Notes under the pieces: model-generated
What the model was told of the DNA's origin: nothing
Seen by the model: only the letters and a program-made list of their open reading frames with translations
Database searches by the model: none
Position numbers and translations under genes: made by a program
Shown: positions 12,072-57,611 of the stretch, one piece after another
How positions within the stretch are numbered: the first letter of the stretch is position 1
Layout of the letters: every line of letters starts with the position of its first letter
Assembly (NCBI GenBank): GCA_964498425.1
Contig: CAZCGQ010000002.1
Location: forward strand, 130,278-194,277
Length of the DNA stretch: 64,000 nt
Origin: an uncultured Gammaproteobacteria bacterium
GTDB lineage: Bacteria; Patescibacteriota; Microgenomatia; UBA12405; JAHJSD01
Direction: 5' to 3'

Positions 12072-12075
12072 AACA

Positions 12076-13044: not shown

Positions 13045-13984
13045 ACTTAAACGCTACGTCAATAACCCAATTCTTAATCCCATTCCTGAACATGATTGGG
13101 AAGCAAAGGCAGTTTTTAACACTGCCGCAATATATCTCGATAACCAAGCCCACTTAGTTTATCGAGCAATGGGCCATGACAATATTTCTACTTTCGGCTA
13201 CGCCTCGAGCTCAGATGGAATAAAAATTGATACCCGCTTAGCCGAACCCATCTATCAACCAAGAATTGAGGAAGAAAAAACAAAAAATCCCGGTGGGAAT
13301 TCTGGCTGTGAAGACCCAAGAATTACCCGAATAGGGGATACCTTATACATGACTTACACCGCCTACGATGGAGTTAACCCAACCCGGGTTGCTTTAACAA
13401 CAATATCAGTAGAAGATTTTCTTAATCACAATTGGAACTGGTCCGTTCCAAAAATCATTACGCCTCCGGGCATCGACAGCAAAAACTCCTGTGTTTTACC
13501 AGAAATAATTGACGGTAAATACTATATTTTCCATCGTTTTTATCCCTGCATCTGGATTGACGCTGTTGAAGACTTAAACTTTGGTGAAAACGACTGGGTC
13601 AAGGGCAGTGCCTGGATTAAACCAAGAAGCGATAAATGGGACAGCCGAAAAATTGGCATTGCTGGCCCGCCAATAAAAACCGATCACGGCTGGCTGCTTA
13701 TTTACCATGCCATCAGCGAAGCCGACCGCCATTACCGCTTAGGGGCGATTCTCCTCAAGCTCGACAATCCCACCCAAACTTTGGCAAGAACTGACTATTA
13801 TCTTCTTGAACCAAGAATGGAGTTTGAACTAAACGGCCAAGAAGATGATGTTGTTTTCTCCTGCGGCCAAGTAGTTATCGACGATATTTTATACGTCTAT
13901 TACGGCGGAGCCGACAAATCGATCGGCATTGCTGCCTGCAGTTTCACAGAATTAGTCAATAAATTAACCAAGGTTCAAACCTAA
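13037..13984 (+). CDS. GH130-like beta-propeller glycoside phosphorylase/hydrolase family protein (paralog 3)
   Basis: Carries NPILNPIPEHDWEAKAVFN, GCEDPRITRIGDTLYMTYTAYDG and YYGGADK. Confidence 0.65.
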   Translation: MIKLKRYVNNPILNPIPEHDWEAKAVFNTAAIYLDNQAHLVYRAMGHDNISTFGYASSSDGIKIDTRLAEPIYQPRIEEEKTKNPGGNSGCEDPRITRIGDTLYMTYTAYDGVNPTRVALTTISVEDFLNHNWNWSVPKIITPPGIDSKNSCVLPEIIDGKYYIFHRFYPCIWIDAVEDLNFGENDWVKGSAWIKPRSDKWDSRKIGIAGPPIKTDHGWLLIYHAISEADRHYRLGAILLKLDNPTQTLARTDYYLLEPRMEFELNGQEDDVVFSCGQVVIDDILYVYYGGADKSIGIAACSFTELVNKLTKVQT

Positions 13985-15991: not shown

Positions 15992-17332
15992 ATGAGGGAA
16001 ATTATGAAAAATAGAATACCACCAGGACCAGATGGAACAAAAAGGTTAAATCTTTTTGGAACAACAATCAACGTTGATAAGTTACCACACCAACCGGAAC
16101 CATCCTCCCCGGTAGGGAAATTAATGTCGGAACTTGAGGGCCATCAAGAAGATCTAATTTCAATATTATTTAACACTGAGCCAAGTGAACAAGAAAAAGT
16201 CCAAGCAGTAAAAACTAAAACAAATCAAATAATTAGACCCTTTCAGCAACCAGACCCAAGTAATCCCTTTGGTTCAATCTGGGGAGAAATAACTGCACAA
16301 ATAGCGGCAAATCGTCTTAACTGGTCAAGGAAAAAAATTCAAACTCACTTGTCCAGGGCTGAGCCAAGTCCGGCAAAAACCGAACAAGGTTTAGCATCAG
16401 CGTTACTAATTCAAAAAATCAATGAAAGGTTAACAGGTCGGGGAAAAGAACTTGCCCAAAGAGAACGGCTTGAAAGAAAACTAAACGCCTGGGTAGATTG
16501 GGCCAGACAGTTCGGCTGTAATCAGGAACAAGCTCAAAAAGTAACTTTATGTACTGCCAAACTTCAACTGCTTCAACCGGAAGGAGGCAAAATAATAAAT
16601 CTTAAAAGGTTAGTCGAATTATTATCTAATGGAATTCAAGGACAAACAGTTAATTTAATTCGATTGCAATGTCTTCCAACAATAAATTCCAAAAAAGGCA
16701 CCCAAGTTTCCGACAAAATGCTGACTAAAGCCCCATTACCAAGTGCAGGATTTGTGACAGTCGACCAACGGGAAGAAATAAAACCAATAAAAACAATTTC
16801 TGAGACATTAAGTCAGTTTGAAATAAATCATTCCCTAACCTTTCTGATAGTTGATATCGACTGCTTCATCCTTGATGATAGAAGCTTAGTAGAAAAAGCC
16901 GAAAAATTTGAAACAAGACTAGATAATCTGTTAAAAAGTCACTTCGCTAATGTAAACGTAACTAGATTAAGCAAAACCGCAGGTTTAGATAGTCCGAGAG
17001 AAGTCCTAACCTCATCAACAGTTTCAGAAATCATTAACAATCCTTTTCAATTATTATCACCCCTAGAGTTAGAAAGACGAACCGAAAAAATGAGAGAAAA
17101 ACTTTCTTGCATGGCAGTTCCTAGTGAAACTAAGACCTTTTCTTCCGCTCAAGAATTAACAATAAGGGAGTTTGCTATCGACTTCTGGATTGGCGAAAAA
17201 TTTGGAGGGAAAAAAGAAGCAATTTTTATCAGAAGAACTAAATCTCTTCAGGCAGCTAGTGAAACCTTTCTTCGCGGGGCTAAACAACAATCACCTCCAT
17301 TTATTGCTTTTTGGACAAATAGATTTGCATGA
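15992..17332 (+). CDS. Hypothetical protein (446 aa), first gene of the tyrS operon
   Basis: Long ORF with coding-like composition and no recognisable motifs. Its stop is 20 nt from the tyrS start. Confidence 0.5.
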   Translation: MREIMKNRIPPGPDGTKRLNLFGTTINVDKLPHQPEPSSPVGKLMSELEGHQEDLISILFNTEPSEQEKVQAVKTKTNQIIRPFQQPDPSNPFGSIWGEITAQIAANRLNWSRKKIQTHLSRAEPSPAKTEQGLASALLIQKINERLTGRGKELAQRERLERKLNAWVDWARQFGCNQEQAQKVTLCTAKLQLLQPEGGKIINLKRLVELLSNGIQGQTVNLIRLQCLPTINSKKGTQVSDKMLTKAPLPSAGFVTVDQREEIKPIKTISETLSQFEINHSLTFLIVDIDCFILDDRSLVEKAEKFETRLDNLLKSHFANVNVTRLSKTAGLDSPREVLTSSTVSEIINNPFQLLSPLELERRTEKMREKLSCMAVPSETKTFSSAQELTIREFAIDFWIGEKFGGKKEAIFIRRTKSLQAASETFLRGAKQQSPPFIAFWTNRFA

Positions 17333-17351
17333 AAGGGTTCGAAAAGATAAA

Positions 17352-18503
17352 ATGAAGAAGATGGATATCGATCAGATAATTAATTTAATTACCAGAAATT
17401 GTGAGGAGGTAATGACCAAAGATGACCTCCAAAAACTAATTAAATCCGAAACTAAATTAAATCACTACATTGGCTTTGAGATATCCGGCATGGTTCATCT
17501 CGGAACCGGCTTAATGTCAATGGGAAAAATTGCTGACTTTTTGCAAGCGGGAATTAAATGTACTATTTTATTAGCTGATTTTCACTCCTACCTTAATAAC
17601 AAGCTTGGCGGGAACTGGGAAAACATTCGAAAGGCAACCAATGCCTATTTCAAAGAAGGCTTAATTGCCTCTCTTAAATGTTTTGATATTGACGTCGATC
17701 AAATAATCTCTACTGAACAATTACAATTTGTCATGGGAAAAAACTTATACGAAAACAACCTTATCCACTGGGAAACCTTTATGGAAGTTGGCAAACATCT
17801 CACCCTGGCTAGAAACCTCCGATCAATTTCGATTATGGGAAAAAAAGAAGGAGAAAGTGTTGATATGGCAACCCTATTTTATCCCCCCCTGCAAGTAGCC
17901 GATATTTTTACTCTTCAAGCTAATCTTGTTCATGCCGGCATCGATCAACGCAAGGCACACGCTAATGCCCGAGATGTCGCCGACAAAATTACCATCAACC
18001 CTTTAAAAAACGACCAAGGGGAAATCATTTCTCCCGTCGCTGTTCACCACAATACCATTGCTGGATTAGAAGGACCGAAGACAAAAAAAGAAACGGGCGA
18101 AGAGCTGAAAATGAGCAAATCCAAACCGAAATCAGCGATTTTTATTCACGATACCCCGGAGGAAATAAATGAAAAAATTAAATCTGCTTACTGCCCACCG
18201 CAAGAAATTGCCTATAATCCAATCATCAACTGGGTAGAAACCCTAATTTTCTGGGGAGCGGATAGAGTAGAGGAGGGGTTAAAAATTAACCGAGAAGAAA
18301 AGCACGGAGGCAAAATAGAATACCAGGAAATTGATCGGTTAAAGCAAGACTATCAATCCGGTAAATTACACCCACTAGATTTAAAAAATGCTGTAGCCAG
18401 CTGGTTAATTAATAAACTTAAACCGGCAAGAATTCACTTCCAGAAAGGAAAAGCGAAAGAGGGATTGGAGTTAATGAAGGATTTAGTAAACAGTAATAAG
18501 TAA
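17352..18503 (+). CDS. tyrS: Tyrosyl-tRNA synthetase, archaeal/eukaryotic type (class Ic)
   Basis: YIGFEISGMVHLGTGL...ILLADFHSYLN, KMSKS, and C-terminal ELHPLDLKNAVASWLINKLKPAR align closely with M. jannaschii TyrRS (YIGFEPSGKIHLGH...ILLADLHAYLN; ELHPMDLKNAVAEELIKILEPIR). Start at ATG 17352 (MKKMDIDQI). Confidence 0.85.
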   Translation: MKKMDIDQIINLITRNCEEVMTKDDLQKLIKSETKLNHYIGFEISGMVHLGTGLMSMGKIADFLQAGIKCTILLADFHSYLNNKLGGNWENIRKATNAYFKEGLIASLKCFDIDVDQIISTEQLQFVMGKNLYENNLIHWETFMEVGKHLTLARNLRSISIMGKKEGESVDMATLFYPPLQVADIFTLQANLVHAGIDQRKAHANARDVADKITINPLKNDQGEIISPVAVHHNTIAGLEGPKTKKETGEELKMSKSKPKSAIFIHDTPEEINEKIKSAYCPPQEIAYNPIINWVETLIFWGADRVEEGLKINREEKHGGKIEYQEIDRLKQDYQSGKLHPLDLKNAVASWLINKLKPARIHFQKGKAKEGLELMKDLVNSNK

Positions 18504-35015: not shown

Positions 35016-36263
35016 ATGGCTAACCAAGTACAAACCTTAAAGGGATTTCGAGACATTATGCCGGAGGAAATGGTTATTCGTCAGAGAGTAATAAACATCC
35101 TGCGCCGAACCTTTGAATCTTTTGGCTTTCAGCCAATCGCTACTCCCACCCTGGAATACGCGGAAGTTTTATTAAATAAATATGGTCAAGAAGCAGATAA
35201 ACTTGTTTACACTTTTAAAGATTTAGGCGACCGTCAAGTTGGGCTTAGATACGACCTAACTGTCCCCGTCGCCCGCTATCTAACCAGCAATCAAAATGAA
35301 ATTACCTATCCCTTTAAACGTTACCAAATCCAAAATGTTTTTCGAGCTGATAAACCCCAACGCGGCCGATTCCGAGAATTTACCCAATGTGACATCGACA
35401 CATTTGGAATTTCCACACCCCTGGCTGACGCAGAAATTACTCTAGTTATTTATACCGCTCTTAAGAACCTCGGTTTTGAAAAATTCACCATAAGAATTAA
35501 TGACCGGCAGTTGTTAACCGCAATGCTTAATCAGGCTGGAGTAGATAACAAAGACAAGCAGTCGTCAATTTTGCAGTCAATTGACAAACTAGATAAAAAA
35601 ACTAAACCGGCAATCACCCAGGAACTAAAAAACAAGGGGTTTGAAGAAAGCTTAATCAAAAATATTTTCAATAAATTAGATAACCTAACTCCTAGTCAGA
35701 ATTTAAACCAAATTTCTAATTTTCTTGATAAAAATGGGGTAAGCCGAGAATTCTATCAATTCAGTCCAAGTCTCATCCGGGGCCTAGACTATTACACCGG
35801 CCCAGTATTTGAAGCCGTTGTTACTAAACCAGATATCGGCTCAATTGGCGGTGGCGGCAGATACGACAATCTTGTCAACCAAATTGGTGGTCCCGATATT
35901 ACCGGAACCGGATTCTCATTTGGGTTAGAACGAGTTGTTGAGGTTATTAAAGATCAAAGTCTTTGGGAAAATATTTCCAGCAGTTCTACTAAAGTCTTAA
36001 TAACTATTTTCTCTCCGGAACTGGCAGAAAATTCAATGAGCACGGCCAGTAAATTTCGGCAAGAAGGAATAAACGCTGAACTGTACCTTAACCCCGAGGA
36101 GAGATTGAATAAGCAGTTAGACTACGCTAACAAGAAAAATATCCCCTGGGTGGTTATCATCGGCCCAGACGAAGTCAAAAGTAACTCTGTTACCCTCAAA
36201 AACATGAAAACTGGAAATCAACAAACCCTTTCTCTCCAAAAAGCAATTACCCAACTCCAATAA
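35016..36263 (+). CDS. hisS: Histidyl-tRNA synthetase
   Basis: Carries MANQVQTLKGFRDIMPEE, class II motifs 1-3 (FRAD..QRGRFREFTQCDIDTFG; GGGRYDNL), and an anticodon-binding domain. Confidence 0.9.
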   Translation: MANQVQTLKGFRDIMPEEMVIRQRVINILRRTFESFGFQPIATPTLEYAEVLLNKYGQEADKLVYTFKDLGDRQVGLRYDLTVPVARYLTSNQNEITYPFKRYQIQNVFRADKPQRGRFREFTQCDIDTFGISTPLADAEITLVIYTALKNLGFEKFTIRINDRQLLTAMLNQAGVDNKDKQSSILQSIDKLDKKTKPAITQELKNKGFEESLIKNIFNKLDNLTPSQNLNQISNFLDKNGVSREFYQFSPSLIRGLDYYTGPVFEAVVTKPDIGSIGGGGRYDNLVNQIGGPDITGTGFSFGLERVVEVIKDQSLWENISSSSTKVLITIFSPELAENSMSTASKFRQEGINAELYLNPEERLNKQLDYANKKNIPWVVIIGPDEVKSNSVTLKNMKTGNQQTLSLQKAITQLQ

Positions 36264-36319: not shown

Positions 36320-37000
36320 TTACTTAATTAAATCCAGGGAGCCGTCGAGAATTTCTTCCAACTGGCGAGATTTTTTGCCAGTACGATGGTCAGTAACCCG
36401 ATTCTGTTGAAAATTATAAGTCCGAATTTTATCTGATCGACGGCCAGAACCAGCAGACTGCCGAATTTGACCAACATAACCCTTCTTTTTAGCCTGAGCT
36501 CTCTGCCACAGTTTGGAAGCAAGTAAACTTAAAGCAATCTGACGGTTTTTCTGCTGACTGCGTTCCTTCTGACACTCAACAGTAATTCCACTCGGCTTAT
36601 GAGTTAATCGAACTGCGGTTGAAACTTTGTTAACATTTTGACCGCCGTGTCCGCCAGCCCTAAAAAAGTCCCAGGTTAAATCCTCTTCCCGTATCTCTTT
36701 GGGGTTAACTGAAACTTTTGGTAAAACAATAACTACTGCCGTTGAAGTATGAATACGACCGTGCTTTTCTGTTTCCGGTATTCGCTGTACCCGGTGTGTT
36801 CCTGTTTCGCCTTGAAGAAACTTAAAAGCGTTTTGGCCGACAACTTGGAGCTTATCTTCATCAATTTTTCCTACCCGCCAACCCTTACTTTTAGCATGTT
36901 GTAGATACATTCGAAAAAGATCTTTAGCCCATATCTTCGCTTCTGTTCCACCAGCCCCCGGCTGGATTTCCAATATTGCTATGTTGGGGTTAATTTTCAT
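36320..37000 (-). CDS. Peptide chain release factor, RF1-like (PxT-type PET tripeptide + GGQ) lacking N-terminal domain 1 (226 aa)
   Basis: Codon-reader region [18 protein letters not shown] and GGQ loop [21 protein letters not shown]. In-frame TAA/TGA stops lie within the 95-nt gap to rpmE, so no upstream domain 1 is possible. Confidence 0.7.
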
Positions 37001-37094
37001 AATTCGTTTATCGGTTACGGTGAAGAAACGCGTATCGTATTTCGGTTAAAGGTAACGTAACCGTCATACGATTGACGATTCGAGCCTCGTAACC

Positions 37095-37319
37095 CTAACC
37101 TTTTTTAGACGATTCCTTTGCTAATTTTCGCTTTCTCTCAAACTTTTCTATCCGACCTTCTGTATCCAAATACTTGGTTTCACCAGTAAAAAAGGGATGA
37201 CAAGCCGAACAAATTTCAACTTCAATCTCTGGTAAAGTCGACCCAGTGGTAAAAGTGTTACCACAAGTACAAGTCACTTTAGCATCATCATGGTATTTTG
37301 GATGGATTCCTTTTTTCAT
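37095..37319 (-). CDS. rpmE: 50S ribosomal protein L31
   Basis: [10 protein letters not shown]...CTCG...[10 protein letters not shown] zinc-ribbon L31. Confidence 0.85.
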
Positions 37320-45989: not shown

Positions 45990-46622
45990 TTAGTTATTTT
46001 GATTTAAGCACTGCACCCAATCACTAGTGTTAACAGTCCCGTTTTCATCAAAGTCATACTTTGAATCGCTTGTCCCGAACTTCTCCATAAAATCACTCTT
46101 ATTACATGTTGTTACTTTCTCACCGGAGCCAGTTGCTGTCGGGCTTGCTTCCGGAACTTCCGTCGGACTAGCCGCGGGCATTGTTGTCGGTGTTGCCGCT
46201 ACAGTTGGCTGAACTGCCTGAGTTGGACTGACTGTAACCTCACCCGGTTTAGTCTTAAATGAATATGGAATACCGTTGTTATCATAAATCTCTTCACCAA
46301 CCCGAATTCTAAAATAATAGGTCGTTTCTTCCTTAAGCGGCGACAAAACAACGCGATGAGTCGTACTCGGCTGATTTTCCAAAGCTCTTAAAAGCAAACT
46401 AGCCGGAGTTGTCCCGTATTCAACTGTGCCCTGAACCTCTTTATCTGTTTGCCAGGTAACAGTTGCGGACTTAACATCAGCTTGAACACGCACATTTTGA
46501 GGTTCCTTACCACCGGAGGCACCGCTTAAGTACGTTTTTGCTGTTCGAACTCCAACCGCAGCTAAAACCCCAACTAAAAGAAGAATAACAATAATCACCA
46601 CCATTTTAATCTTTTTTTTCAT
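45990..46622 (-). CDS. Secreted FN3-like module protein with a C-terminal single dockerin-like Ca-loop segment
   Basis: Signal anchor, then an FN3-like beta segment (PQNVRVQADVKSATVTWQTD...YYFRIRV), a Pro/Thr linker, and C-terminal DFDENGTVNTSD. Confidence 0.5.
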   Translation of the reverse strand: MKKKIKMVVIIVILLLVGVLAAVGVRTAKTYLSGASGGKEPQNVRVQADVKSATVTWQTDKEVQGTVEYGTTPASLLLRALENQPSTTHRVVLSPLKEETTYYFRIRVGEEIYDNNGIPYSFKTKPGEVTVSPTQAVQPTVAATPTTMPAASPTEVPEASPTATGSGEKVTTCNKSDFMEKFGTSDSKYDFDENGTVNTSDWVQCLNQNN

Positions 46623-47311
46623 AAAGACAAGGCCCAGCTAAATAATAACATAAGTCCGCCCCCAATAACAGCAATCATTATCGGTGTTTCAATTCCGGTC
46701 TCGGGCAAACTGCTTGGCGTAGACGTTGGCTGATCCGGAGCAGTTGTACTCGTTGGAGCTGGGGTGTTGGTTGCCTCAGCCGGCGTATTTGTCGGTTGAG
46801 CTGACTCCCCAATAGTATAACTGCCGCTTCCACAAGCAGCGCAATCAATTAAGTCATTTCCTTGTTGATCCCAGATTGCCGAGTCAGTATCAACACCAGA
46901 CTCACAAAGGAATGATGTTGAGGCTGTTCCCTCAGCAGTAGCTTCAAAAGTTACCGTAGCAATATCTCCTTGACCGCTGTTGGTAACCAGAGCCTGCTCA
47001 GAAAAAAGATAAATTGTCAACTTCCCGTTATTATTTTCAATATTGTAATCAAACCCTGAAAAGAAATCCCCCTCAACTACTTCATTTACCTTAAGCCTAC
47101 TTTCATCAAAACTAATTAAGGCATCCGCTGCCATTGATTCTTTGTCCCCGGTATCAATTTTAACCAGGATATCAAAGGTTTCACCAACCTCATAATTCCC
47201 ACTTGATGGCTGAAAATACAACCTTGGACCAGCCTGAGCAAAAACTGTTCCCGCCTGCCACAGGCCGATGAAAAAGATTACGGTAAAGACTACCTTTCTA
47301 GCAATTTTCAT
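46619..47311 (-). CDS. Secreted cohesin-like beta-sandwich protein with an LPETG sortase anchor
   Basis: Signal peptide. A cohesin-like domain is present (YEVGETFDILVKID...GDIATVTFEA). After a Pro/Thr linker come LPETG plus a hydrophobic tail. Confidence 0.5.
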   Translation of the reverse strand: MKIARKVVFTVIFFIGLWQAGTVFAQAGPRLYFQPSSGNYEVGETFDILVKIDTGDKESMAADALISFDESRLKVNEVVEGDFFSGFDYNIENNNGKLTIYLFSEQALVTNSGQGDIATVTFEATAEGTASTSFLCESGVDTDSAIWDQQGNDLIDCAACGSGSYTIGESAQPTNTPAEATNTPAPTSTTAPDQPTSTPSSLPETGIETPIMIAVIGGGLMLLFSWALSL

Positions 47312-47892
47312 TTATTTATTCTAATCCTTAAATCCTCTTTAGTAAACGAATATTCCTTTCCTTGTCCGGCTAATACTGTTCCCCTTGCCTCACCCGGGTT
47401 ATAGATTACAAATTCCGTTCGTCCGGCTGCCAAAGGCTTATACTCTATTACTGCTAAGGATACCTCTTCCCCGGCTGTAATTTCAACCCCCTCCATTGTG
47501 CTTGGCTCAACCAGTGAAATTAAAACCCTTTTTTCTTCCGGTTCAATCCAGTTCCTAGCAGCATAGGAAAATTTCTCGCTGGGATCAATTCCCATAACTT
47601 CAACCATGTTCGGTTGATAATTAAGATAAACATCAACTCCATCCAGCATAATGGTTTCTTTCGCTGTTAAAACTACTTTCATTTGGCTAGTTTCCCCAAG
47701 ATTAACTGCTTCTTCCCCTTGCAAGCTAACTTCCGCCTCTGTCTGAAGTTGCGTCGACTGCGGAAGGGGCAATCTCTCTTTAACCTGAGCTTGATTAACT
47801 TGAGTATTTTTAACTACCAAAATACTCTCTAATATTATTAAAAGCGCTAAAACTGGTATCAACCATTTTACTTTTTCTAAATTAAATTTCAT
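47308..47892 (-). CDS. Secreted hypothetical protein, paralog of 53764-54345
   Basis: Signal anchor. It shares ~45% identity with the 53764-54345 product (…EPE.R.L.SLVE…GEARGTVLAG.GKEY.F..EDL.I). Confidence 0.45.
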   Translation of the reverse strand: MKFNLEKVKWLIPVLALLIILESILVVKNTQVNQAQVKERLPLPQSTQLQTEAEVSLQGEEAVNLGETSQMKVVLTAKETIMLDGVDVYLNYQPNMVEVMGIDPSEKFSYAARNWIEPEEKRVLISLVEPSTMEGVEITAGEEVSLAVIEYKPLAAGRTEFVIYNPGEARGTVLAGQGKEYSFTKEDLRIRINK

Positions 47893-48997
47893 CTTCGTAT
47901 TTTGTACTCAACGTACCCAGGAAAAAGGTAACATCCTGACCGTTAACAATACCGTTAAAATTAATATCTTCCGGAATATCTCCTTGAGTCATAAATGCCT
48001 GCTTTAAAGTTGTAAAGTCAGCACTGTTCACAACCCCATTTTGATCAATGTCGCCTGGCTCAAGGCGCAACCCGGTCCAGTCAAAATTATTATCACCGGC
48101 AGCTAAGGTAATATCTTCTTCACCCAGCCAACAATGTTCTGTCTGATCATCCTCGCAATACCGCCTAGCTAAATGTACTGGTCCTTTAATCAATATAGCA
48201 TATCCATCACTGGGTTCAACTCCAACCAACTCTAAACTCCCTGTTCCAATTGCTTCTTCATTAAATTCAACAGGGACATCTTCATACTTATATGTCGACC
48301 CCTCGCCCTTAACGACGAGGTCAACGAATCTTGTTCCGATATCATCAACAACCAATTCATGCTCATCAACCCGATATTCCGTACCAACAAATTTAATCTT
48401 AAAATTCATCTCCGGCCAACCTGTTGGCGGCTCGGTTGGTATCGGAGTCGGTTCCCCTGCACTAACACTTACTTCAGCCCCAGCAAAATCTGTAATATTC
48501 AAGACCCTGTCCCTCTCCCCTTCTAGTCCCCTCGCCCCAACAAAGGAAACTGCTCCCGTTCTATTTATTGTTGATGTTCCTTCTCCGACCAAATTAAAGG
48601 TTAAGGTGACTAAATTAAAAGTGTCTTCAATTGGTGTAACACCAGATTTTAGGTAAGCTACCGTTTCCACTACCCCACCTTGAGTGGTTTGAGACAAACC
48701 ATTAAATTCTTCACTTAAGCTTGAAGAGGCAAATTCCAAAACTGATGGGTCGTAACTTAAACTAAAATGTCCACCGCTGACTAAATTACCATCCGGCAAA
48801 ACTCTAACTTGTACGCTGGCAGTTTGGTCATCCAAATCAACGTTTTGACTGTCCGGTAACACTTGAACATTAATATTCCCATAGGCTGCTCTTCTTCTAA
48901 CTTCTTGCGTCTGTTGTACTAAGGCCAAAGAAGCAATAACTGCTATCAAGGGCAAAACAAAAAGCAAAGTTAGTAGTTTTCTTTTATATTTTTCCAT
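47882..48997 (-). CDS. Secreted cohesin-like module + C-terminal dockerin-like protein (paralog of 54329-55567)
   Basis: The C-terminus DIDQNGVVNSADFTTLKQAF...EDINFNGIVNGQDVTFFLGTL is a two-segment dockerin-like Ca-binding repeat. Start at ATG 48997. Confidence 0.5.
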   Translation of the reverse strand: MEKYKRKLLTLLFVLPLIAVIASLALVQQTQEVRRRAAYGNINVQVLPDSQNVDLDDQTASVQVRVLPDGNLVSGGHFSLSYDPSVLEFASSSLSEEFNGLSQTTQGGVVETVAYLKSGVTPIEDTFNLVTLTFNLVGEGTSTINRTGAVSFVGARGLEGERDRVLNITDFAGAEVSVSAGEPTPIPTEPPTGWPEMNFKIKFVGTEYRVDEHELVVDDIGTRFVDLVVKGEGSTYKYEDVPVEFNEEAIGTGSLELVGVEPSDGYAILIKGPVHLARRYCEDDQTEHCWLGEEDITLAAGDNNFDWTGLRLEPGDIDQNGVVNSADFTTLKQAFMTQGDIPEDINFNGIVNGQDVTFFLGTLSTKYEDEI

Positions 48998-48999
48998 TT

Positions 49000-50325
49000 T
49001 TAGAATTTGGGCAACTCCGAATACCACTGATTAACATCGCCTTCGTCCAACTGGCCGTTGCAGTTAAAGTCACCGTAAAGATAATTACTATTTAATTTAT
49101 AATCATCGTACCAACCGGCAAAGTCTTCCATATTTATCGTTCCGTCACAGTTATAATCCGCACTAGACTGAATATACCCTCCGTCCGGGCAAGGCTTACA
49201 GCCACTTGGTGCCTCCGTATTTGTCGGCTGAGGTGGCGTATCTGTATTTGTTGGTTGCGGCATATCTGTGTTCGTTGGCCGCGGGGACTCCGTTGGTCTA
49301 GTTGTACTGGTTGGCTCAGGGGTTACTGTTGGCGTTACTTCATCTACCTCAAATGTTGCCCCACTGGTATTAACCTGGTATTCACTCACATCACAACTCC
49401 CAGATTCTTGAACAGGTACACAGCCTGATGCCTCCGCGTTAGTGAAGTTTAATGTTCCTTGCCCATTAACCCTTACTTCAATTTCCGCTACTGTAAAAAC
49501 TCCCCAGGGCAGTTCTTGCCAAGGTGATGATTTGTTAGCCTGAATTACCAATTGCCCTCCCCCATAGTTAACATTCAATTCACTTGGTAAACCAACTAAA
49601 CTGACATCAACTACCTCTAAGTTAGAACCATAGTTTAATCTTAAGCTGGCAATATCAACTTTTTTCTGGCTGGAATCAATCATCAAATTGGCGTTAACCG
49701 TACCTCCAGATTGGCCAACCTGATAATTACCTGGTTCAAAATAAGCAACTATTTCATGTTGCTGGGGAGGGTTAGTTGGAATTGGAGAAGGAGTGCTGGT
49801 TGCTACTGGCTCCTGGCGTATTTCAAAACTCGCTCCTAATGTGCTAGTGCTGTGTGAAGTCACTGGGCAACTACTACCACTAGGATTACAACCATTAACC
49901 GTTGCACCGTCAAATCTAAGATTACCTCCGGAATTAACCCTTACCGTAATAGTCGCTACCGTAAAACTACCACTTGGCAGCTGCTGCCAATTTCCAGTTT
50001 TAACTGCCGTTATCTCAGCTTGGCCACCTCCAGAAGTTATACTCATCTGATTAGGTAAAGCCCCCAAACTAATATTTTCAATTTCTAGCCCGGAATCATA
50101 ACTTAAATTCAGGGAAACCAAATCAACCTTTTTTTGTCCAGAATCAGCTATTAACCTAACATTAACTGTTTCTCCGGAATTATTGACTGCGTAGGAGGAC
50201 TGGTTAAAACTCAAGTCTACGTCTGCGGCCGCTCCCCGTCTCGTTTCTTGACTTTGATTTACCAAGTAAATTCCACCCAATAAAGAAGTAATTAAAATAC
50301 CAATTAAAAAAACTTTTTTTATCAT
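49000..50325 (-). CDS. Secreted protein with two cohesin-like repeats, a Pro/Thr linker and a C-terminal Cys-containing dockerin-like module
   Basis: Two ~150-aa internal repeats (…LSYDSGLEIENISLGALP…GCNP / …LNYGSNLEVVDVSLVGLP…GCVP). The C-terminus carries DYNCDGTINMEDFAGWYDDY...GDFNCNGQLDEGDVNQWY. Confidence 0.5.
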   Translation of the reverse strand: MIKKVFLIGILITSLLGGIYLVNQSQETRRGAAADVDLSFNQSSYAVNNSGETVNVRLIADSGQKKVDLVSLNLSYDSGLEIENISLGALPNQMSITSGGGQAEITAVKTGNWQQLPSGSFTVATITVRVNSGGNLRFDGATVNGCNPSGSSCPVTSHSTSTLGASFEIRQEPVATSTPSPIPTNPPQQHEIVAYFEPGNYQVGQSGGTVNANLMIDSSQKKVDIASLRLNYGSNLEVVDVSLVGLPSELNVNYGGGQLVIQANKSSPWQELPWGVFTVAEIEVRVNGQGTLNFTNAEASGCVPVQESGSCDVSEYQVNTSGATFEVDEVTPTVTPEPTSTTRPTESPRPTNTDMPQPTNTDTPPQPTNTEAPSGCKPCPDGGYIQSSADYNCDGTINMEDFAGWYDDYKLNSNYLYGDFNCNGQLDEGDVNQWYSELPKF

Positions 50326-50374
50326 CTATATATATAAGTTAAAGATATCAGAAACATATCCTGGTTTCAATAAG

Positions 50375-50938
50375 TTACAAACCTAACATTCTTAAAAACC
50401 ATTTCATAATTTTACTCGTTATTCCTTGCCCGTTTGATCCAACTGTAATATTTACATCTTCCCCTGTTGTTGTTTCAAATCCGCTAACCTGGCAGTCATT
50501 TCCGTTAGGGATACAACCATTAGATTGGGTGGTATTAAATGATATATTTCCTGAAGATTTAGCCCCAACAGTTATTGTAGCCAAATCAAATTTACCGCTC
50601 GGGAGAGACTGCCAATTACTCATCTTTACCGCTTTAATACTTATCTTCCCACCACCGGTACTAACTCCAAGCTCATCTGGCAAATCACCTAAGTCTATAT
50701 CCTTAATTTCTAATCCAGAACTGTAATCCATTTCCACCAAAGCTAAATCAACTTTTTTTTTCCCTGCGTCAATTTTTACTTTTATGTCCACTGTTTCACC
50801 AACATCAATCTGGTAGTTGTTCTTTTCAAAATAAAAATTAACAGCACTTCCCCGAGAAAAAACCAATTTCGCGTTACCGAAGAAGAAAATCAAAAAAAAA
50901 AGAACAAAGGCAGATTTTTTTACCAACTGCTTAGTCAT
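50375..50938 (-). CDS. Secreted single cohesin-like module protein
   Basis: Signal anchor MTKQLVKKSAFVLFFLIFFF, then a module homologous to the repeats in 49000-50325 (…MDYSSGLEIKDIDLGDLP…GCIPNGNDC). Confidence 0.5.
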   Translation of the reverse strand: MTKQLVKKSAFVLFFLIFFFGNAKLVFSRGSAVNFYFEKNNYQIDVGETVDIKVKIDAGKKKVDLALVEMDYSSGLEIKDIDLGDLPDELGVSTGGGKISIKAVKMSNWQSLPSGKFDLATITVGAKSSGNISFNTTQSNGCIPNGNDCQVSGFETTTGEDVNITVGSNGQGITSKIMKWFLRMLGL

Positions 50939-53432
50939 AAAGAGCTGACCTCCAAACCGAGAAATCAATGTATTCAACAGTACCATTGCAGTTGGTATCT
51001 CCATAAACACTGTTACCGTTCCCTGTACACTGACCGGTATCCGATGCCGTCCCGTCAAACATAGCTGACCTCCAAGCAGAAAAATCTAGGTAATCAACAT
51101 CTCCATCACAATCGGCATCTCCAGTTACACACTCGCCTTCTTCCGGTGTATTCGTTGGATCAACTGGAGGCACCGGTGTATTTGTCGGGCCACCTGGTCC
51201 TGCCGGCGTATTCGTCGGTTGAACTGGCGGTACCGGCGTATTCGTCGGTAATGGCTGATCTGTTGGAATTGGCGAAGGTTCAATTTCATCCTCACAAGCC
51301 CTATCGGAACAACTATACCAACCACTTCCTGGATCCTCATCCCACCATTGACAGCCATATCTACACGCTCCAGTTACGCAATAACAACTCCTTTGACTGA
51401 CAGGCGTCGGTGTCGGCTCAATTTCTTCCTCGCAAGCACTGGCCGAACAACTAAACATATTCTCCATTGGCTCATCTGACCATACACAACCATAAGCACA
51501 TGCTCTAGTTACACAGTAACATTCTCTTTGACTAACCGGCGTTGGGGAAATTTCAGCATCACACGCACTATCCGAGCAACTGTACCAACCACTTCCTGGA
51601 TCCTCATCCCACCACTGACAACCATAACTGCAAGCTCCAGTTACGCAATAACAACTCCTTTGACTGACAGGCGTCGGTGTTGGTGAAGTTTCACATCTAC
51701 TATCAGGGCTACTATTCCAACAAATCTTTGTGTCTGCGTTTGGAGGTAAAAAGAAAATACCACACTGTAAATCTGGAAGACAATCTTCCTTCCCAGTGCA
51801 AGTATCCCCACAATCGCCGTCACCAGAATCTAACTCACAACAATAAGTTGTTGATTCCCCAGAAACTCCAATAACTCCTCCACAAGGCCTGTTATAATCA
51901 GTTCTTCCCGAACACTCTGACGGCAATGAACACTCCTCATCCGACGCACACTCCACAAAATCAATATACCCTGTTGGTGTTGGGGAAACCCTCACTCGGC
52001 AAACTCCAGGCATACCTTGACTCAAGTCACAATAACCAGAACAACAGTCAGAATTGGCCCCGCACTCCCCGCCATTATTTACACAACTAGATCGACAGAT
52101 TCCGGGCATTCCTTGGCTTAAATCACAATTGCCCGAACAGCATTCAGAATTTGCACCACATTCCCCGCCATTATTTACGCATCTTGGAGTTGGCGTTGGT
52201 TCCGGTCCACAATACCTATCCGCGCACGATCTCCAAAGCCCCCCTGGATTAGCTGTCCGCCATTCACAACTATTAAATACACTGCTGCAAATTCCTTGGC
52301 AATAACAATTCAAATCACCTGAGGGTGTTGGAGTTGCCGTAGGTACTATAGTTGGGGTTGGATAAGGAAGACAGCAATACTTATAACCCCCTGGAGTAAC
52401 TCCACACTTTTTACCTCTTAAAACTGTTCCTCCACAGTTAGCCGGCGGTACACAAGCCTCATCAACATCACAACTAACAAAATCCTCCTCAGTTTCACAT
52501 CCACAACCACCGCCTACTGGAACACAATTTTCACCACTTGGGCAACTACCTAAGCAAACATTCCCATCAGGAGTAAGTTCCATATGACAACTCTCTGACG
52601 CCGGCGTTGCAGTCGGCTGAGGTCCGCAATAACAGCTCGTCCCTTGGCAATAATAGCTATTACAACAATCACTGCAGTTAGCTCTCGACGTTCCGTCTGA
52701 CGTTTCACAGGCTGTACCATCACGTTCACAAACTGAACAATTTCTGACACATTCTTCTCTAGTAATAAAATTGCCATTGGGATCAGCTACACAAGTTCCA
52801 CTCATCGTACATCGATAATTTGGCTCTGGAGTAGAAGTTGCCGTTGGTACTCTCGTTGGAGTTGGTTCAGAAACACAGCAATATTTATAACCACCTGGAA
52901 TAACTCCACATTTCTTATTGTATCTAACTAATCCTCCACAATTATCCGCTGGAACACAAACCTCATCGGCATCACAAGTAACAACTCCGCCCGGCGGCGT
53001 TGGAGCAACACAACCTCGACCGTCTATACAAGTACTATCTCCTGGACAACCATAACAAACAAGTTGGCCTCCGTAATTGACACAATGCCCGTTAGCTCCA
53101 CAACAATCACCCTCGGATTTACCGGAACAATCTGTACTTGGTCTTGGTGTAGCAGTAGGTGCTGATGTTGGATCGGGATTTTTACAGCAAATTTCGCCAA
53201 TCGGGCAAGTTCCAGAAGCATTTTCTAACCCAAAATCCGAACATCTAGCTGACCCAGGCCCCCCAGATTTACAAATCGGGCAAGTATAAGCAGCGCCGCG
53301 GCGGGTTTCTTGCTGCTGCTGTACAAGCCTTAAAGCCGCCGGCAAAGCAACTCCAATTAAAAGCAAACCAATAATAATCGGAATATTGGCCGCTCCGCGC
53401 TGAGAAAAATTATTTTTTAACTTTTTTAACAT
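50931..53432 (-). CDS. Large secreted Cys-rich repeat protein (833 aa) with a C-terminal dockerin-like module
   Basis: Signal anchor. It contains about 100 Cys in repeated knot-like units: 3x CYCVTGAC.YGC.W.DEDPGSGWYSCSD.AC, 2x VNNGGECGANS.CCSG.CDLSQGMPG.CR, and 2x KKCGV.PGGYKYCC. The C-terminus carries DADCDGDVDYLDFSAWRSAMFD...GDTNCNGTVEYIDFSVWRSALYD. Confidence 0.5.
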   Translation of the reverse strand: MLKKLKNNFSQRGAANIPIIIGLLLIGVALPAALRLVQQQQETRRGAAYTCPICKSGGPGSARCSDFGLENASGTCPIGEICCKNPDPTSAPTATPRPSTDCSGKSEGDCCGANGHCVNYGGQLVCYGCPGDSTCIDGRGCVAPTPPGGVVTCDADEVCVPADNCGGLVRYNKKCGVIPGGYKYCCVSEPTPTRVPTATSTPEPNYRCTMSGTCVADPNGNFITREECVRNCSVCERDGTACETSDGTSRANCSDCCNSYYCQGTSCYCGPQPTATPASESCHMELTPDGNVCLGSCPSGENCVPVGGGCGCETEEDFVSCDVDEACVPPANCGGTVLRGKKCGVTPGGYKYCCLPYPTPTIVPTATPTPSGDLNCYCQGICSSVFNSCEWRTANPGGLWRSCADRYCGPEPTPTPRCVNNGGECGANSECCSGNCDLSQGMPGICRSSCVNNGGECGANSDCCSGYCDLSQGMPGVCRVRVSPTPTGYIDFVECASDEECSLPSECSGRTDYNRPCGGVIGVSGESTTYCCELDSGDGDCGDTCTGKEDCLPDLQCGIFFLPPNADTKICWNSSPDSRCETSPTPTPVSQRSCYCVTGACSYGCQWWDEDPGSGWYSCSDSACDAEISPTPVSQRECYCVTRACAYGCVWSDEPMENMFSCSASACEEEIEPTPTPVSQRSCYCVTGACRYGCQWWDEDPGSGWYSCSDRACEDEIEPSPIPTDQPLPTNTPVPPVQPTNTPAGPGGPTNTPVPPVDPTNTPEEGECVTGDADCDGDVDYLDFSAWRSAMFDGTASDTGQCTGNGNSVYGDTNCNGTVEYIDFSVWRSALYD

Positions 53433-53447
53433 TATATTTGTATGTGT

Positions 53448-53690
53448 TTACTGACAGCAGTAGGGCTTATCCGAAGGACAATCTCCCTTGTTCCACCTCA
53501 TATTAATTTCATGACAAAACTGAGCTTTACATGTTGTTTGACAAGGATAGCCAAAGGTTGGCATTTGGTTTCCAGCCGCCCCTTTTCGAGTTTCTTGACT
53601 TTGCTTAACTAGCTGTAAAACGCCAATCAAAGCAAGAAGGACAAAAAAAATGGCTAGAAGGCTTAAAATTTTTCGTTTGTTTTGTTCCAT
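53448..53690 (-). CDS. Small secreted Cys-rich protein (80 aa)
   Basis: Signal anchor plus a C-terminal 6-Cys segment (GYPCQTTCKAQFCHEINMRWNKGDCPSDKPYCCQ). Confidence 0.4.
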   Translation of the reverse strand: MEQNKRKILSLLAIFFVLLALIGVLQLVKQSQETRKGAAGNQMPTFGYPCQTTCKAQFCHEINMRWNKGDCPSDKPYCCQ

Positions 53691-53763
53691 AAAGGCTGGT
53701 AAAAATCGTAACTATCCTCACTCTAGACCATAACGTATCTTTTTGTCAAGAATCAGTTCTTAA

Positions 53764-54345
53764 TTACTCGACGCTGATAGTTAAGTCTTCAGTAATAAAA
53801 TCATATTCTTTCCCCTTGCCAGCTAAAACCGTACCCCTTGCCTCTCCAGCTTTATAAATCTCTACATCAACCTTTCCATCTAAAATCGCTTGATAGGTAA
53901 TATCGGCTAAAATTAATTTTTGGCCTTTCTCTAAATTTACTTGACCATTTTCTTGAGTCTCAACTAATGATAATAAGATTCGTTCGTTTTCTGGTTCAAT
54001 CCAATTCCGTCCAACAACAGAAAATTCCGTTGTCGGCTTAACAGTTAAAATTTCAAGGCCGGCGGAATCATAACGAAGGTATACGTCTGCTCCATCTAAG
54101 ATTAATTCTTCCTCGGCAGATAAAACTACTTTAACGTTTTCAACCTCTCCCCTCCTTACCTGGCTGTTACCAATCAAATTAATCTTGGCTGCGTAATTTA
54201 AATTATCATCAACTTGAACCGAAGTTTCCGAGGCCACTTCTTTCTTCCTAACTGCCATCAATTTGACGATAAAAACACTCTCAAAAATAACTAGCAAAGA
54301 TAGGACTGGAATTATCCAAACTCTCTTTTTAAAGGTCATCTTCAT
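53764..54345 (-). CDS. Secreted hypothetical protein, paralog of 47308-47892
   Basis: See 47308-47892. Confidence 0.45.
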   Translation of the reverse strand: MKMTFKKRVWIIPVLSLLVIFESVFIVKLMAVRKKEVASETSVQVDDNLNYAAKINLIGNSQVRRGEVENVKVVLSAEEELILDGADVYLRYDSAGLEILTVKPTTEFSVVGRNWIEPENERILLSLVETQENGQVNLEKGQKLILADITYQAILDGKVDVEIYKAGEARGTVLAGKGKEYDFITEDLTISVE

Positions 54346-55567
54346 ATTTTGTGCTTAAAGTATTTAGGAAAAAAGTAATATCCTGACCGTTAACAATCCC
54401 ATTAAAATTAATATCCTCCTCAACGTCCCCCTCCAACTTTAAAGCCTCTTTCAATAAAGTAAAGTCAGCGCTGTTGACAACTCCGTTTTTGTCAATGTCC
54501 CCTGGCTCCAAGTTAATTTCTGTCCAATCAAAGCTATTTTCACCGCTATCTAAGGTTATTTCTTCTTCACCAAGCCAACAATGTTCCCTTTGGTCATCCT
54601 TACAAAATCGCTTGGCTAGATGCACCGGGCCTTTAACCAATACTGCATAACCGCTTCCCGGCTCAACTCCAGTTAAATCTATTGAACCAGTTCCAATTGC
54701 TTGATTATTAAATTCAACTGGAACGTCCTCATATTCAAAACTCTCCCCATTACCCTTAACCCAAACGTCGACTAACCGGGTACCAATGGTATCCACTGTC
54801 TTCATCACCCCGCCTACCCGATACTCTGTTCCTTCAAACTTAATTTTAAAAGTTAACTCCGGCCATCCACCTTCCGGTTCTCCTGTCGGAGTTGCCGTTA
54901 CCACCGGTATTGGCGTACTGGTAGCCTCAGGGTCTGGCGTGTTAGTTGCCCCAGACGGCGGAGTATTTGTTGCCACTGGAGTTTCTGTCGGGACTAACTC
55001 CGATACAACCGTTATCGTTGATCTATCAAAACTACTCATTGATAACTGCCGGTCAATATTACCCTCCTGACCTCTAGACCCGGTAATTACATAATCCTCA
55101 GTCCTGTTAATATCAGCTACACCCGTCTGCTTTGCTTCAAAAGTCAAAGTTGCAATTTGAAAAGGCTCATTATTTAATCGCTCTAATTCATCCCGAGCCA
55201 TTGTCGTCAATGCCGTAAACTCAACCCTTCCTCCAGCAGAAGAGTCAGACCCGGTAAATCCATTACGAACAGCAACATCAACAAACTCTAATACATCCTC
55301 ATCGTAATCCAGAGTCATTTTTACTAAATTAACCAAATTCGGTCCAGGATTAACCATAACTTGTAGGTTAACCTGTTCACCGACTTCCACTATTTTTTCA
55401 TCTGGCAAAATTGAAACGGCAACATTGCCGTAAGCAGCTTGACGTCTAGTTTCTTGGCGCTGTTGAACCAAATAAATTGCCCCAAAGAGGCCAAAAATTA
55501 AACTAAAAAAGATAAACCAGTTTTTATTACCTGTATTCGTCATACCATTGGGCAAAATCCTGCTCAT
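54329..55567 (-). CDS. Secreted cohesin-like module + dockerin-like protein (paralog of 47882-48997). The real start may be the internal Met at 55543.
   Basis: C-terminus GDIDKNGVVNSADFTLLKEALKLEGDVEEDINFNGIVNGQDITFFLNTL, plus a Thr/Pro linker. Confidence 0.5.
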   Translation of the reverse strand: MSRILPNGMTNTGNKNWFIFFSLIFGLFGAIYLVQQRQETRRQAAYGNVAVSILPDEKIVEVGEQVNLQVMVNPGPNLVNLVKMTLDYDEDVLEFVDVAVRNGFTGSDSSAGGRVEFTALTTMARDELERLNNEPFQIATLTFEAKQTGVADINRTEDYVITGSRGQEGNIDRQLSMSSFDRSTITVVSELVPTETPVATNTPPSGATNTPDPEATSTPIPVVTATPTGEPEGGWPELTFKIKFEGTEYRVGGVMKTVDTIGTRLVDVWVKGNGESFEYEDVPVEFNNQAIGTGSIDLTGVEPGSGYAVLVKGPVHLAKRFCKDDQREHCWLGEEEITLDSGENSFDWTEINLEPGDIDKNGVVNSADFTLLKEALKLEGDVEEDINFNGIVNGQDITFFLNTLSTKYEDDL

Positions 55568-57611
55568 TAACTATATCATCACAATTAAAGTCAGCGTAAA
55601 GCAAATTACTTCCGCTTCTAAAATCATCATACCAACCAGCAAAGTCCAATTCATTAACTTGACCATTACAATCATAATCAGCTCTTGAACCAACCTTTGT
55701 CCCATTTGGACAAGGCTTACAACCCTGAGGCGGAGTATTTACCGGCAAAGTTGGTGTCCCTTCCGGTTCCCGACACCGTTCAACTATTTCTTGACAATTA
55801 TTGTTCTCATTAACTTCATCAACTTGATCTCGGCTATCAATACAAACCTCAATTGTGTCACTCTGGCCAGAGCATTCCTCATAAAAACTATAAATGCCAA
55901 TATCAAAACTGCGGATATTCCCATTAGCCGGAACATCGATTTCCCCTTTGTCGTTTCCATCAACGGTTAAACTTGCCTTAACCGTTTGAATATCCTCAAT
56001 CTCCTTACCTTCGTTAACTGAATGCAAATATACCTTACCTGAAACATTTCCCTCCATCCCACCTAGCCAAACATTTTTCAGGCTTAATTCCGGCTTATCA
56101 CCAAAATAAAAACTGGCCTGGTTCCTGAAATCAGTTAAGGGAATATTTATTGGGGTACAGCCATCACAAGGATTTGGCTTGGGAACACAGGCTTCTATTT
56201 GGCCGCTCTGGAAGCGAATCGACCCTTCTTGATTAACCTTAACCTCCAAACTACCTGCCTTAAAACGAGTTCGTGGAAACCTTTGCCAAACTGATGGGTG
56301 TTTTGCTGTTAAATTGAGATTAATAGCTCCACCACTGATACTAATATTACTATCATGACCGAAATCATTTCCATAACGCGCCTCAACCTCTAAACCCGAA
56401 TCGTAAGAGAACTGCATCCTCAACCGCTTAACCGGCAAACCGGCATATTCGCCTCTCCCGTCAATGTAAAACCGAGCATCATCGCTAACATCTCCAGCTT
56501 TCTGTACAACAAAGGTATCATCATTAAAAAAGCCCCATATATCCTCCTGAACGGGTTCCTCTTGATAACAATTTTCCATGCAAGCATCGAAATCCTCTGC
56601 CATTCCCGGCCGGCCGTCACAATCAAAATCAATCATCTGTTTAACAACCTCAGCACAATCCTCTGACAAAATTACTTCATCCTCGTTGGGAACTCGACTA
56701 CAATCATTTGGCACACAATCCGGTGGGGTTGTCGGTACCGGTTGGTCTTGATGCGGAGTAGAGGTTGGAGCTGATTTGTCACAACAACAGTTACCACTAC
56801 CACAGCCATAGTCCCCATCTAAACAATTGGCAAACCGAAAACATAAATAGGTTGGCTCACATTCACAATCCGGACAAACCGCGCTGCATTCAGCAGAAAC
56901 TATCGGCGTACTGGTCGGATTAGGTTGGCAGTCACAGTTATTATCTTCCGGACAGTCAGGATTACGGCAATATTTACGGTTACCGATAATCGGAATTGCT
57001 TGAGCGGTAGAATCGCCTAAAACCACCTCTGAATCAGCCTCTTCAACAGTCGGCTGCCAGCAAATCAAATCCCCAGCACAACCATTATTATCGAGACAAA
57101 CATCATTACAACCTCCACCTGGCAAAGCTGGCGTATTAGTTGGGTTGCTTGAGGAATTAGCTTGACATTGTTTATTACTATTAGACCAACATCTGCTGGA
57201 CCCACAATCACACCCTGGAGTTAAAACCTGTGCACATTGCATACTAGGATCAGTAGCATAGGCACAACTATCAACACAAGAATTAGGAAACTCTCTCCAA
57301 CTCCCACCACTTGCTAAACAAAGCTCTCTATTAGTTGGAGTATTTGTCGGCAGCTGACTGCCACCTGGGCCAGCCGGGGTATTTGTTGGCAAACTTCCAC
57401 CCGGAGGCAATTCCCCCATCCCTACCTCACTTCCAACCTTAGTTGCCGCTTGTCGCCTTACTTCCTGTTGTTCTTGAACCAACTGTAAACCGGCAAAAAG
57501 TGAAGCCCCAATAAGAACCAAGCTGATAACTAAAATAATCTGGCTGTTTCCTCGTTCCACAAAGTTTCTCACTCTTGCTTCAAGATAATCCATTTCAACC
57601 TCTTTTGTCAA
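55527..57611 (-). CDS. Large secreted Cys-rich protein (694 aa) with a cohesin-like module and a C-terminal Cys-containing dockerin-like module
   Basis: Signal anchor. The N-terminal half is Cys-rich. The central region resembles the cohesin-like repeats (…MQFSYDSGLEVEARYGN…IEACVPKPNPCDGC). The C-terminus carries DYDCNGQVNELDFAGWYDDF...ADFNCDDIVNEQDFAQWYDEY. Confidence 0.5.
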   Translation of the reverse strand: MTKEVEMDYLEARVRNFVERGNSQIILVISLVLIGASLFAGLQLVQEQQEVRRQAATKVGSEVGMGELPPGGSLPTNTPAGPGGSQLPTNTPTNRELCLASGGSWREFPNSCVDSCAYATDPSMQCAQVLTPGCDCGSSRCWSNSNKQCQANSSSNPTNTPALPGGGCNDVCLDNNGCAGDLICWQPTVEEADSEVVLGDSTAQAIPIIGNRKYCRNPDCPEDNNCDCQPNPTSTPIVSAECSAVCPDCECEPTYLCFRFANCLDGDYGCGSGNCCCDKSAPTSTPHQDQPVPTTPPDCVPNDCSRVPNEDEVILSEDCAEVVKQMIDFDCDGRPGMAEDFDACMENCYQEEPVQEDIWGFFNDDTFVVQKAGDVSDDARFYIDGRGEYAGLPVKRLRMQFSYDSGLEVEARYGNDFGHDSNISISGGAINLNLTAKHPSVWQRFPRTRFKAGSLEVKVNQEGSIRFQSGQIEACVPKPNPCDGCTPINIPLTDFRNQASFYFGDKPELSLKNVWLGGMEGNVSGKVYLHSVNEGKEIEDIQTVKASLTVDGNDKGEIDVPANGNIRSFDIGIYSFYEECSGQSDTIEVCIDSRDQVDEVNENNNCQEIVERCREPEGTPTLPVNTPPQGCKPCPNGTKVGSRADYDCNGQVNELDFAGWYDDFRSGSNLLYADFNCDDIVNEQDFAQWYDEYR

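Follow-up and report, generated by a model that had tools for sequence, protein, structure and literature searches.

A prfA ortholog of Microgenomates probably encodes a natural release factor RF1 without domain 1

The prfA locus of the DNA studied here—a stretch of 64 kb, which we call the window—encodes on the minus strand (36320..37000) a 226-aa homolog of release factor 1 (RF1) that comprises domains 2, 3, and 4 only. We consider it probable that the gene is a Microgenomates prfA ortholog and that its product is a naturally truncated RF1, acting as the cell's class I release factor for UAA and UAG without contacts to the L11 stalk or RF3, with UGA read by a separate RF2. To our knowledge, essentially no textbook bacterial RF1 or RF2 is without domain 1, whose supposed roles are docking to the L11 stalk and RF3-driven recycling. 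A sequence-only reading of the same DNA had noticed an RF1-like product lacking all of domain 1 and had proposed either a working RF1 in minimised form or a PrfH-like rescue factor. The open reading frame, Pfam, and the PDB alignment bear out the missing domain, and the first of these proposals is supported by the prfA position, RF1-specific residues, purifying selection, and co-evolution of the GGQ domain.

The reading frame, assigned from its translation together with Pfam, NCBIfam, PDB matching, and AlphaFold2, runs from an ATG at 37000-36998 to a TAA at 36322-36320. Upstream on the minus strand lies rpmE (37095..37319; ribosomal protein L31, 74 aa, TAG stop), and the convergent downstream neighbor, given here as context, is hisS (35016..36263, plus strand), which belongs to the conserved block; as had been stated, neither adjoining gene is rtcB. 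The spacer between rpmE and the RF gene (37001..37094, minus strand) is non-coding and measures 94 nt rather than the 95 nt first given, with in-frame stops where the sequence-only reading had placed them (TGA at 37066-37064 and TAA at 37048-37046 in the RF frame). That reading had also excluded a CTTTGAC frameshift site, and CTTTGA is indeed absent upstream of the RF start; given this absence and the RF-frame stops in the spacer, a frameshift site or hidden N-terminal exon was rejected. Among close relatives, the rpmE-coding sequence reaches the RF start or nearly so, and in relatives the gene that precedes the RF gene either overlaps its start or stops 3–16 nt short of it. The 94-nt rpmE–prfA spacer is specific to the window's genome, and neither the rest of the window nor the related loci compared hold anything similar. 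Its predicted fold is one long hairpin with imperfect pairing (-30.5 kcal/mol, z -2.3); it has no T-tract after it and no obvious Shine-Dalgarno sequence, and it gave no Rfam match at the gathering score.

Pfam recovers a full RF-1 domain, together with a PCRF domain matched only at positions 101-194 of 194. Against NCBIfam models, the protein scores 281 and 273 bits for RF1 (TIGR00019 and NF001859), 219 for RF2, 77 for PrfH, and 55 for ArfB; the two RF1 scores lie below the equivalog cut-offs of 400 and 423 because the match begins at model positions 106 and 114. The same ranking (RF1 best, RF2 next, PrfH far lower) answers the sequence-only reading's call for alignment with the three families, and all 71 family members scanned match the RF1, RF2, and PrfH models with the best E-value for RF1. 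As regards RF2, the window protein has PET and IRTYNF rather than SPF and IRSY..P..VKD, and its similarity to ArfB stays below the cut-off (55 bits against 100) and is confined to residues 102-134. The best PDB match is RF1 of T. maritima (query 7-225 against residues 87-316 of 342), and the PDB alignment to E. coli RF1 covers residues 111-340. By multiple alignment to E. coli reference sequences whose numbering agrees with the PDB alignment, the window protein lacks residues 2-104, that is, all of domain 1; it also differs from canonical RF1 by two losses not listed in the earlier reading, a domain 2 hairpin (E. coli 151-160, 10 residues) and the C-terminal 19 residues (342-360). Shared with canonical RF1 are domains 2, 3, and 4, the PxT head, GRIHTS, GGQ, the switch-loop region, and 46-51% identity over the common region, as well as the position beside rpmE. 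We built an AlphaFold2 model with the 71 family members (pLDDT 79.8, pTM 0.74); its fit to free T. maritima RF1 (1rq0) has a TM-score of 0.81 and an rmsd of 3.5 Å, and the predicted fold is the closed form of RF1 domains 2-4. By descent, reading head, and gene position, then, the protein is an RF1 ortholog, one that lacks the architecture expected of an RF1 family member.

The functional motifs are all encoded in the retained part. Codons for G17-G18-T19-E20 (36941..36952, minus strand) correspond by alignment to E. coli G120/E123 at the tip of helix alpha5, which we take to read U1 of the stop codon as in RF1–ribosome structures. The RF1 reading head (residues 72-86; 36743..36787, minus strand), aligned to E. 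coli Q185-S199, contains the PxT tripeptide (PET, 36770-36778) as well as I-H-T, the residues for stacking and recognition, and the GGQ motif for peptidyl-tRNA hydrolysis (36638..36646, minus strand) was located by motif scan and family alignment; PET and GGQ, both named in the sequence-only reading, were confirmed at residues 75-77 and 119-121. Columns invariant in the 71 members include G17, G18, G119, G120, and Q121 and, in the reading head, Q72, R73, P75, T77, E78, R82, H84, T85, and S86, with E20 and I83 conserved in at least 90%. These conserved columns correspond to T. thermophilus G116, E119, Q181, P184, T186, I192, H193, and T194, which in RF1–ribosome structures read U1, A2, and the third base. 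The protein holds only the decoding module of domains 2 and 4 and the GGQ module of domain 3, and in it all residues known for stop-codon reading and release catalysis are conserved.

The short form is widespread. Protein searches returned more than 120 clusters (90% identity level), 55-96% identical to the window protein and nearly all 225-235 aa long with the same start; named sources are Roizman-, Shapiro-, and Gottesmanbacteria and the "Patescibacteria group". The same start and length recur in many independent assemblies from NCBI, JGI, ENA, and Logan, and six species-level relatives in GTDB carry a 226-aa gene starting MKINP or MNINP. Such constancy is, on the evidence of the sequences, far beyond what chance or miscalling would be expected to produce. 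Pairwise dN/dS against six orthologs is 0.02-0.09, with dS saturated, and points to strong purifying selection on the short RF1. Clustering at 50% identity merges the fully short forms into a few clusters, and the next in order are already ordinary RF1s. Databases label the family "peptide chain release factor-like protein", "PCRF domain-containing", or "hypothetical protein", and the missing domain 1 explains why pipelines fall back on "release factor-like" or "hypothetical". The closest genomes (L002-L008) are deposited as "uncultured Gammaproteobacteria bacterium" TPA records, although their genes are Patescibacteria-like; a mislabel is probable. Two "RF1" proteins of 477 and 481 aa (P0121, P0122) carry an exact internal duplication of ~120-150 residues, and their double RF stretches were set aside as internal duplications in ordinary RF1s, probably misassemblies.

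The rpmE–prfA neighborhood recognised in the sequence-only reading extends well beyond the window: rpmE adjoins the RF gene in every CPR locus examined, be its RF1 short, intermediate, or full-length. Next to rpmE, RF1 is 226-235 aa long in twelve loci (L001-L009, L011, L013, L070), 242 aa in L164, 256 aa in Amesbacteria (L232), 269 aa in L230, 301 aa in Chisholmbacteria (L010/L012), 331 aa in L235, and 356 aa in Dojkabacteria (L050); the order in Roizmanbacteria is hisS-RF1-rpmE, with the RF start 3 nt past the hisS stop. Intermediate-length RF1s retain a coiled-coil remnant that becomes progressively shorter, and these graded lengths at one orthologous locus suggest that the N-terminal extension has shrunk stepwise. 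An ENA scaffold of uncertain affiliation (L234, GC 37%) encodes a full-length RF1 that is among the closest full-length matches to the short-family profile; its genes run prfA-prmC-sua5, with secA-prfB 3.8 kb downstream of prfA and a canonical CTC-TTT-GAC frameshift site, and both of its RFs show a GGQNVNK context.

We also considered which stop codons the organism uses. The window is 39% G+C; among its 61 long ORFs, taken without overlaps, TAA is the stop of 42, TGA of 14, and TAG of 5, in agreement with the earlier observation that all three stops are in use. The TAG-ended ORFs, rpmE among them, imply a need for RF1. TGA is a true stop in the window, for example after gyrB, which ends ...ATLDI followed by TGA at what we take to be the usual GyrB C-terminus; ARAGORN predicts three tRNA genes in the window (Ala, Tyr, and Leu), with no suppressor tRNA among them. 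The sequence-only reading had concluded that an RF2-like activity must exist somewhere, and rightly so: Microgenomates do encode RF2s, 333-337 aa long.

Since the GGQ domains of RF1 and RF2 are closely alike in several genomes, the search for RF2 used a chimeric profile that joined an RF2 reading head, a Microgenomates RF1 GGQ domain, and an RF2 domain 4 motif. Its top matches were mostly RF2 fragments from other phyla; one fragment (P0314) joins an SPF head to a Microgenomates-type GGQ domain, and a search with it led to a "peptide chain release factor 2" family from Candidatus Roizmanbacteria, Microgenomates bacterium OLB22, and GW2011_GWA2_46_7, so that RF2 of the clade is known from these sources rather than from the window's own lineage. 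The complete Microgenomates RF2s (P0518, P0520, P0522) are single ORFs whose scores of 411-418 bits exceed the prfB cut-off of 370. Ahead of GxGGxE they carry 104-106 residues, compared with 133 in E. coli RF2, 116 in E. coli RF1, and 13 in the window RF1, which indicates that the RF2 of the clade keeps a somewhat shortened domain 1 and that its RF1 has lost that domain. A canonical RF2 of this kind would account for the TGA stops. The RF2 P0406 and the short RF1 P0067 come from sister Roizmanbacteria MAGs in separate assemblies (GCA_001789955.1 and GCA_001789935.1, respectively).

Other routes to RF2 were less productive: none was present in the RF1 neighborhoods of six further CPR lineages, GTDB searched with the short RF yielded nothing but RF1 loci, RF2 profiles run against IMG/VR recovered ordinary or phage RFs, and the anchors secA and smpB were not found in the CPR DNA examined. 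In a metagenome scan with RF2 domain 2, limited to the 80 loci nearest to the first query sequence, all RF2s uncut by a contig end have domain 1. Apparent "short RF2s" of 205-292 aa were rejected as partial sequences or internal-Met calls (MDW inside GGTEAMDW). The genes after prfB in OLB22 are a 164-aa ORF, ftsE, and ftsX; prfB itself is split (45 + 292 aa), and a programmed CTTTGAC site was rejected as the cause in favor of a 1-nt frame change near an A-run. The complete Microgenomates RF2 genes lack a programmed +1 frameshift. The RF2 head of the clade (P0518, P0520, P0522, P0407, P0415) reads G-V-H-R-L-V-R-Q-S-P-F-N-A-D-K-L-R-Q-T-S-F, with SPF kept and the usual R-R-H-T-S-F replaced by L-R-Q-T-S-F, in which the base-stacking position holds Gln instead of His.

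In a stretch of 68 residues around GGQ, identity of the window RF1 is 57-65% with RF2s of the clade and 46-49% with the E. coli RFs; E. coli RF1 and RF2 share 63% there. A derived motif around GGQ, beginning L-E-W-x-F-[FY], is common to RF1 and RF2 of the clade. The GGQ domains of the two factors have co-evolved, and concerted evolution is what would be expected of two factors working on the same ribosome.

A further difference lies in charge. Canonical RF1 has a pI of ~5, against ~10 for the window protein: across 41 full-length RF1s the median pI is 5.05 and the net charge -17, with domains 2-4 alone at -5, whereas the short family has a median pI of 9.85 and a net charge of +10, and the window protein reaches pI 10.3 and +19. 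The acidic parts of an ordinary RF1 are domain 1 (net -12) and, in E. coli, the C-terminal tail (net -5), and intermediate-length RF1s have a charge in between. In the closest full-length relatives, domains 2-4 are already at net +1 to +5, and the shift may come partly from lineage composition; electrostatic compensation is for this reason advanced here as a hypothesis.

Other explanations for a short factor have to be weighed against these observations. The gene could be a PrfH-like or other specialised rescue paralog, with the true full-length RF1 encoded elsewhere—PrfH being an RtcB-linked rescue factor for damaged ribosomes. PrfH (RFH; TIGR03072) does share the absence of domain 1 (PMC1586002), the GGQ motif, and a similar size (~200-230 aa) with the window protein, and our view is that of the 64-kb window and the loci compared rather than of a whole genome. 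Yet the PrfH model gives 77 bits against a cut-off of 166.65, and BLASTP to a PrfH-like protein from an IMG/VR contig aligns the GGQ domain only (42% identity over 67 residues), so the second proposal of the sequence-only reading finds no support. The RF1 reading head is invariant in the family, whereas PrfH has its own conserved head and decoding-site residues (PMC1586002) and an rtcB partner; the RtcB family is absent from all Pfam-annotated related loci. The gene moreover stands at the prfA locus, where relatives have longer forms of RF1, and no second RF homolog was found in the 64-kb window (tblastn, GGQ scan), within 10 kb of RF1 in 13 CPR loci (tblastn), or in the gene tables of further CPR loci. 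A PrfH-like identity is therefore largely refuted, and we consider a rescue paralog of any kind very unlikely. Still less probable, in our estimation, is a split RF1, its domain 1 supplied in trans by a small protein of its own. Conservation of domain 1 is poor and a free-standing copy could be missed, yet when the window and ~430 kb of related CPR DNA were searched with an HMM from 44 RF1 N-domains, no ORF for a separate domain 1 turned up, only the reduced N-domain within a 301-aa RF1. The series of lengths (356, 331, 301, 269, 256, 242, 235, and 226 aa) looks like stepwise erosion rather than fission, and the acidic C-terminal tail has been lost too, with the rest of the protein turned basic.

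Even less weight attaches to an omnipotent short factor that reads UGA as well. Its appeal is that TGA ends 14 of the 61 window ORFs and that the window holds no RF2 gene; against it, the reading head is strictly of RF1 type, and canonical RF2 genes with SPF in the clade pass the prfB cut-off. The unusual 94-nt spacer with in-frame stops directly upstream might raise the suspicion of a pseudogene in decay or of an artefact of assembly or annotation, and this we regard as practically negligible: the start and length repeat across independent assemblies, dN/dS is low (0.02-0.09), and the gene upstream comes right up to the start codon in relatives. Conservation refutes this reading.

Taking the short protein as the working RF1, we can outline how it might act. 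It would bind the A site, read UAA and UAG through its PxT head, and then open to set GGQ in the peptidyl-transferase center as canonical RF1 does. [quoted passage not shown] Loss of the acidic domain 1 and acidic tail, with Lys and Arg added in domains 2-4, could compensate for lost ribosome affinity, and UGA would be read by the separate canonical RF2 with its domain 1 retained. According to the account of Mora et al. 2003 given in PMC1586002, engineered E. coli RF1 without its N-terminal domain remains codon-specific in peptide release and functional in vivo, but RF3 no longer stimulates it; the same source describes RF3 as dispensable and missing from small genomes, and it suggests, reviewers' comments included, that domain 1 seemingly matters more for RF2 than for RF1. 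In the literature we searched on release factors in Patescibacteria, CPR, and Microgenomates, we found no description of a truncated RF1.

The window protein has the same architecture as that engineered factor (Mora et al. 2003, in PMC1586002), from which it differs in being natural, fixed in a large clade, and basic, with additional losses in domain 2 and at the C-terminus, and in being known here from sequence. It amounts to a natural repeat of the laboratory deletion, with the domain 1 third lost from RF1 across the group; the dispensability of domain 1, which has so far rested on the E. coli truncation, is here met as a fixed condition in a large and diverse clade. Nature here provides a test of the purpose of domain 1, of why RF1 and RF2 depend on it and on L11 to different degrees, and of how a class I factor leaves the ribosome without RF3, and a compact 226-aa RF1 may be of use in structural and synthetic-biology work. 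Tentatively, and with less than even confidence, we propose that Microgenomates dropped L11-stalk docking and RF3 coupling for RF1 only, leaving a tRNA-sized basic module with electrostatic affinity for the ribosome, that RF2 kept domain 1, and that the same design re-arose on large phage-classed contigs. If true, the asymmetry between RF1 and RF2 would imply a role of domain 1 that is independent of RF3 and on which RF2 relies and RF1 does not.

The GGQ-only rescue factors ArfB, ICT1, and C12orf65 share a GGQ domain and a basic character with the window protein, but they lack domains 2 and 4, which are intact in the window protein, and place a C-terminal tail in the mRNA channel. Viral-classed IMG/VR contigs (L205, L206, L209, L210, L211, L214, L219-L225, and L228; 12-561 kb, most >79 kb) encode RF1-like proteins of ~225-235 aa that end straight after G-x-[LF]-D-x-L and carry the head P-P-T-E...G-R-R-Q-T-S. 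These have in common with the window protein the absence of domain 1, the same C-terminal end point, GGQ, and a basic pI (9.3-9.6), yet they are only 34-42% identical to it and have P-P-T and R-R-Q-T-S in place of P-x-T and R-I-H-T-S; they look like an independent domain-1-less lineage of RF1 type. Three other IMG/VR contigs (L081 and L082, GC 24%, 200-376 kb; and L083) code for PrfH-like proteins of ~205 aa with an LQLSAGQGPxEC... start, a GGQ domain, and no PxT or SPF head.

Elsewhere in the window, three tandem paralogs occupy 10212-13984, two of them confirmed as GH130 (beta-1,4-mannooligosaccharide phosphorylase family); the first has a 280-aa N-terminal extension without a Pfam match. 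At 15992-18503, a 446-aa ORF without any Pfam match shares 160 nt with a class I tRNA synthetase gene of the Tyr/Trp type, as read from a long TTG start; the synthetase domain starts at residue 93, so the true start probably lies downstream. Finally, the region 45990-57611 holds a run of genes for some ten secreted proteins, which have N-terminal signal anchors, Cys-rich modules, P-T-N-T-P linkers, and dockerin-like repeats at the C-terminus. Most of them lack a Pfam match and one has CARDB, and within the region the sub-blocks 47308-49027 and 53764-55567 look duplicated.
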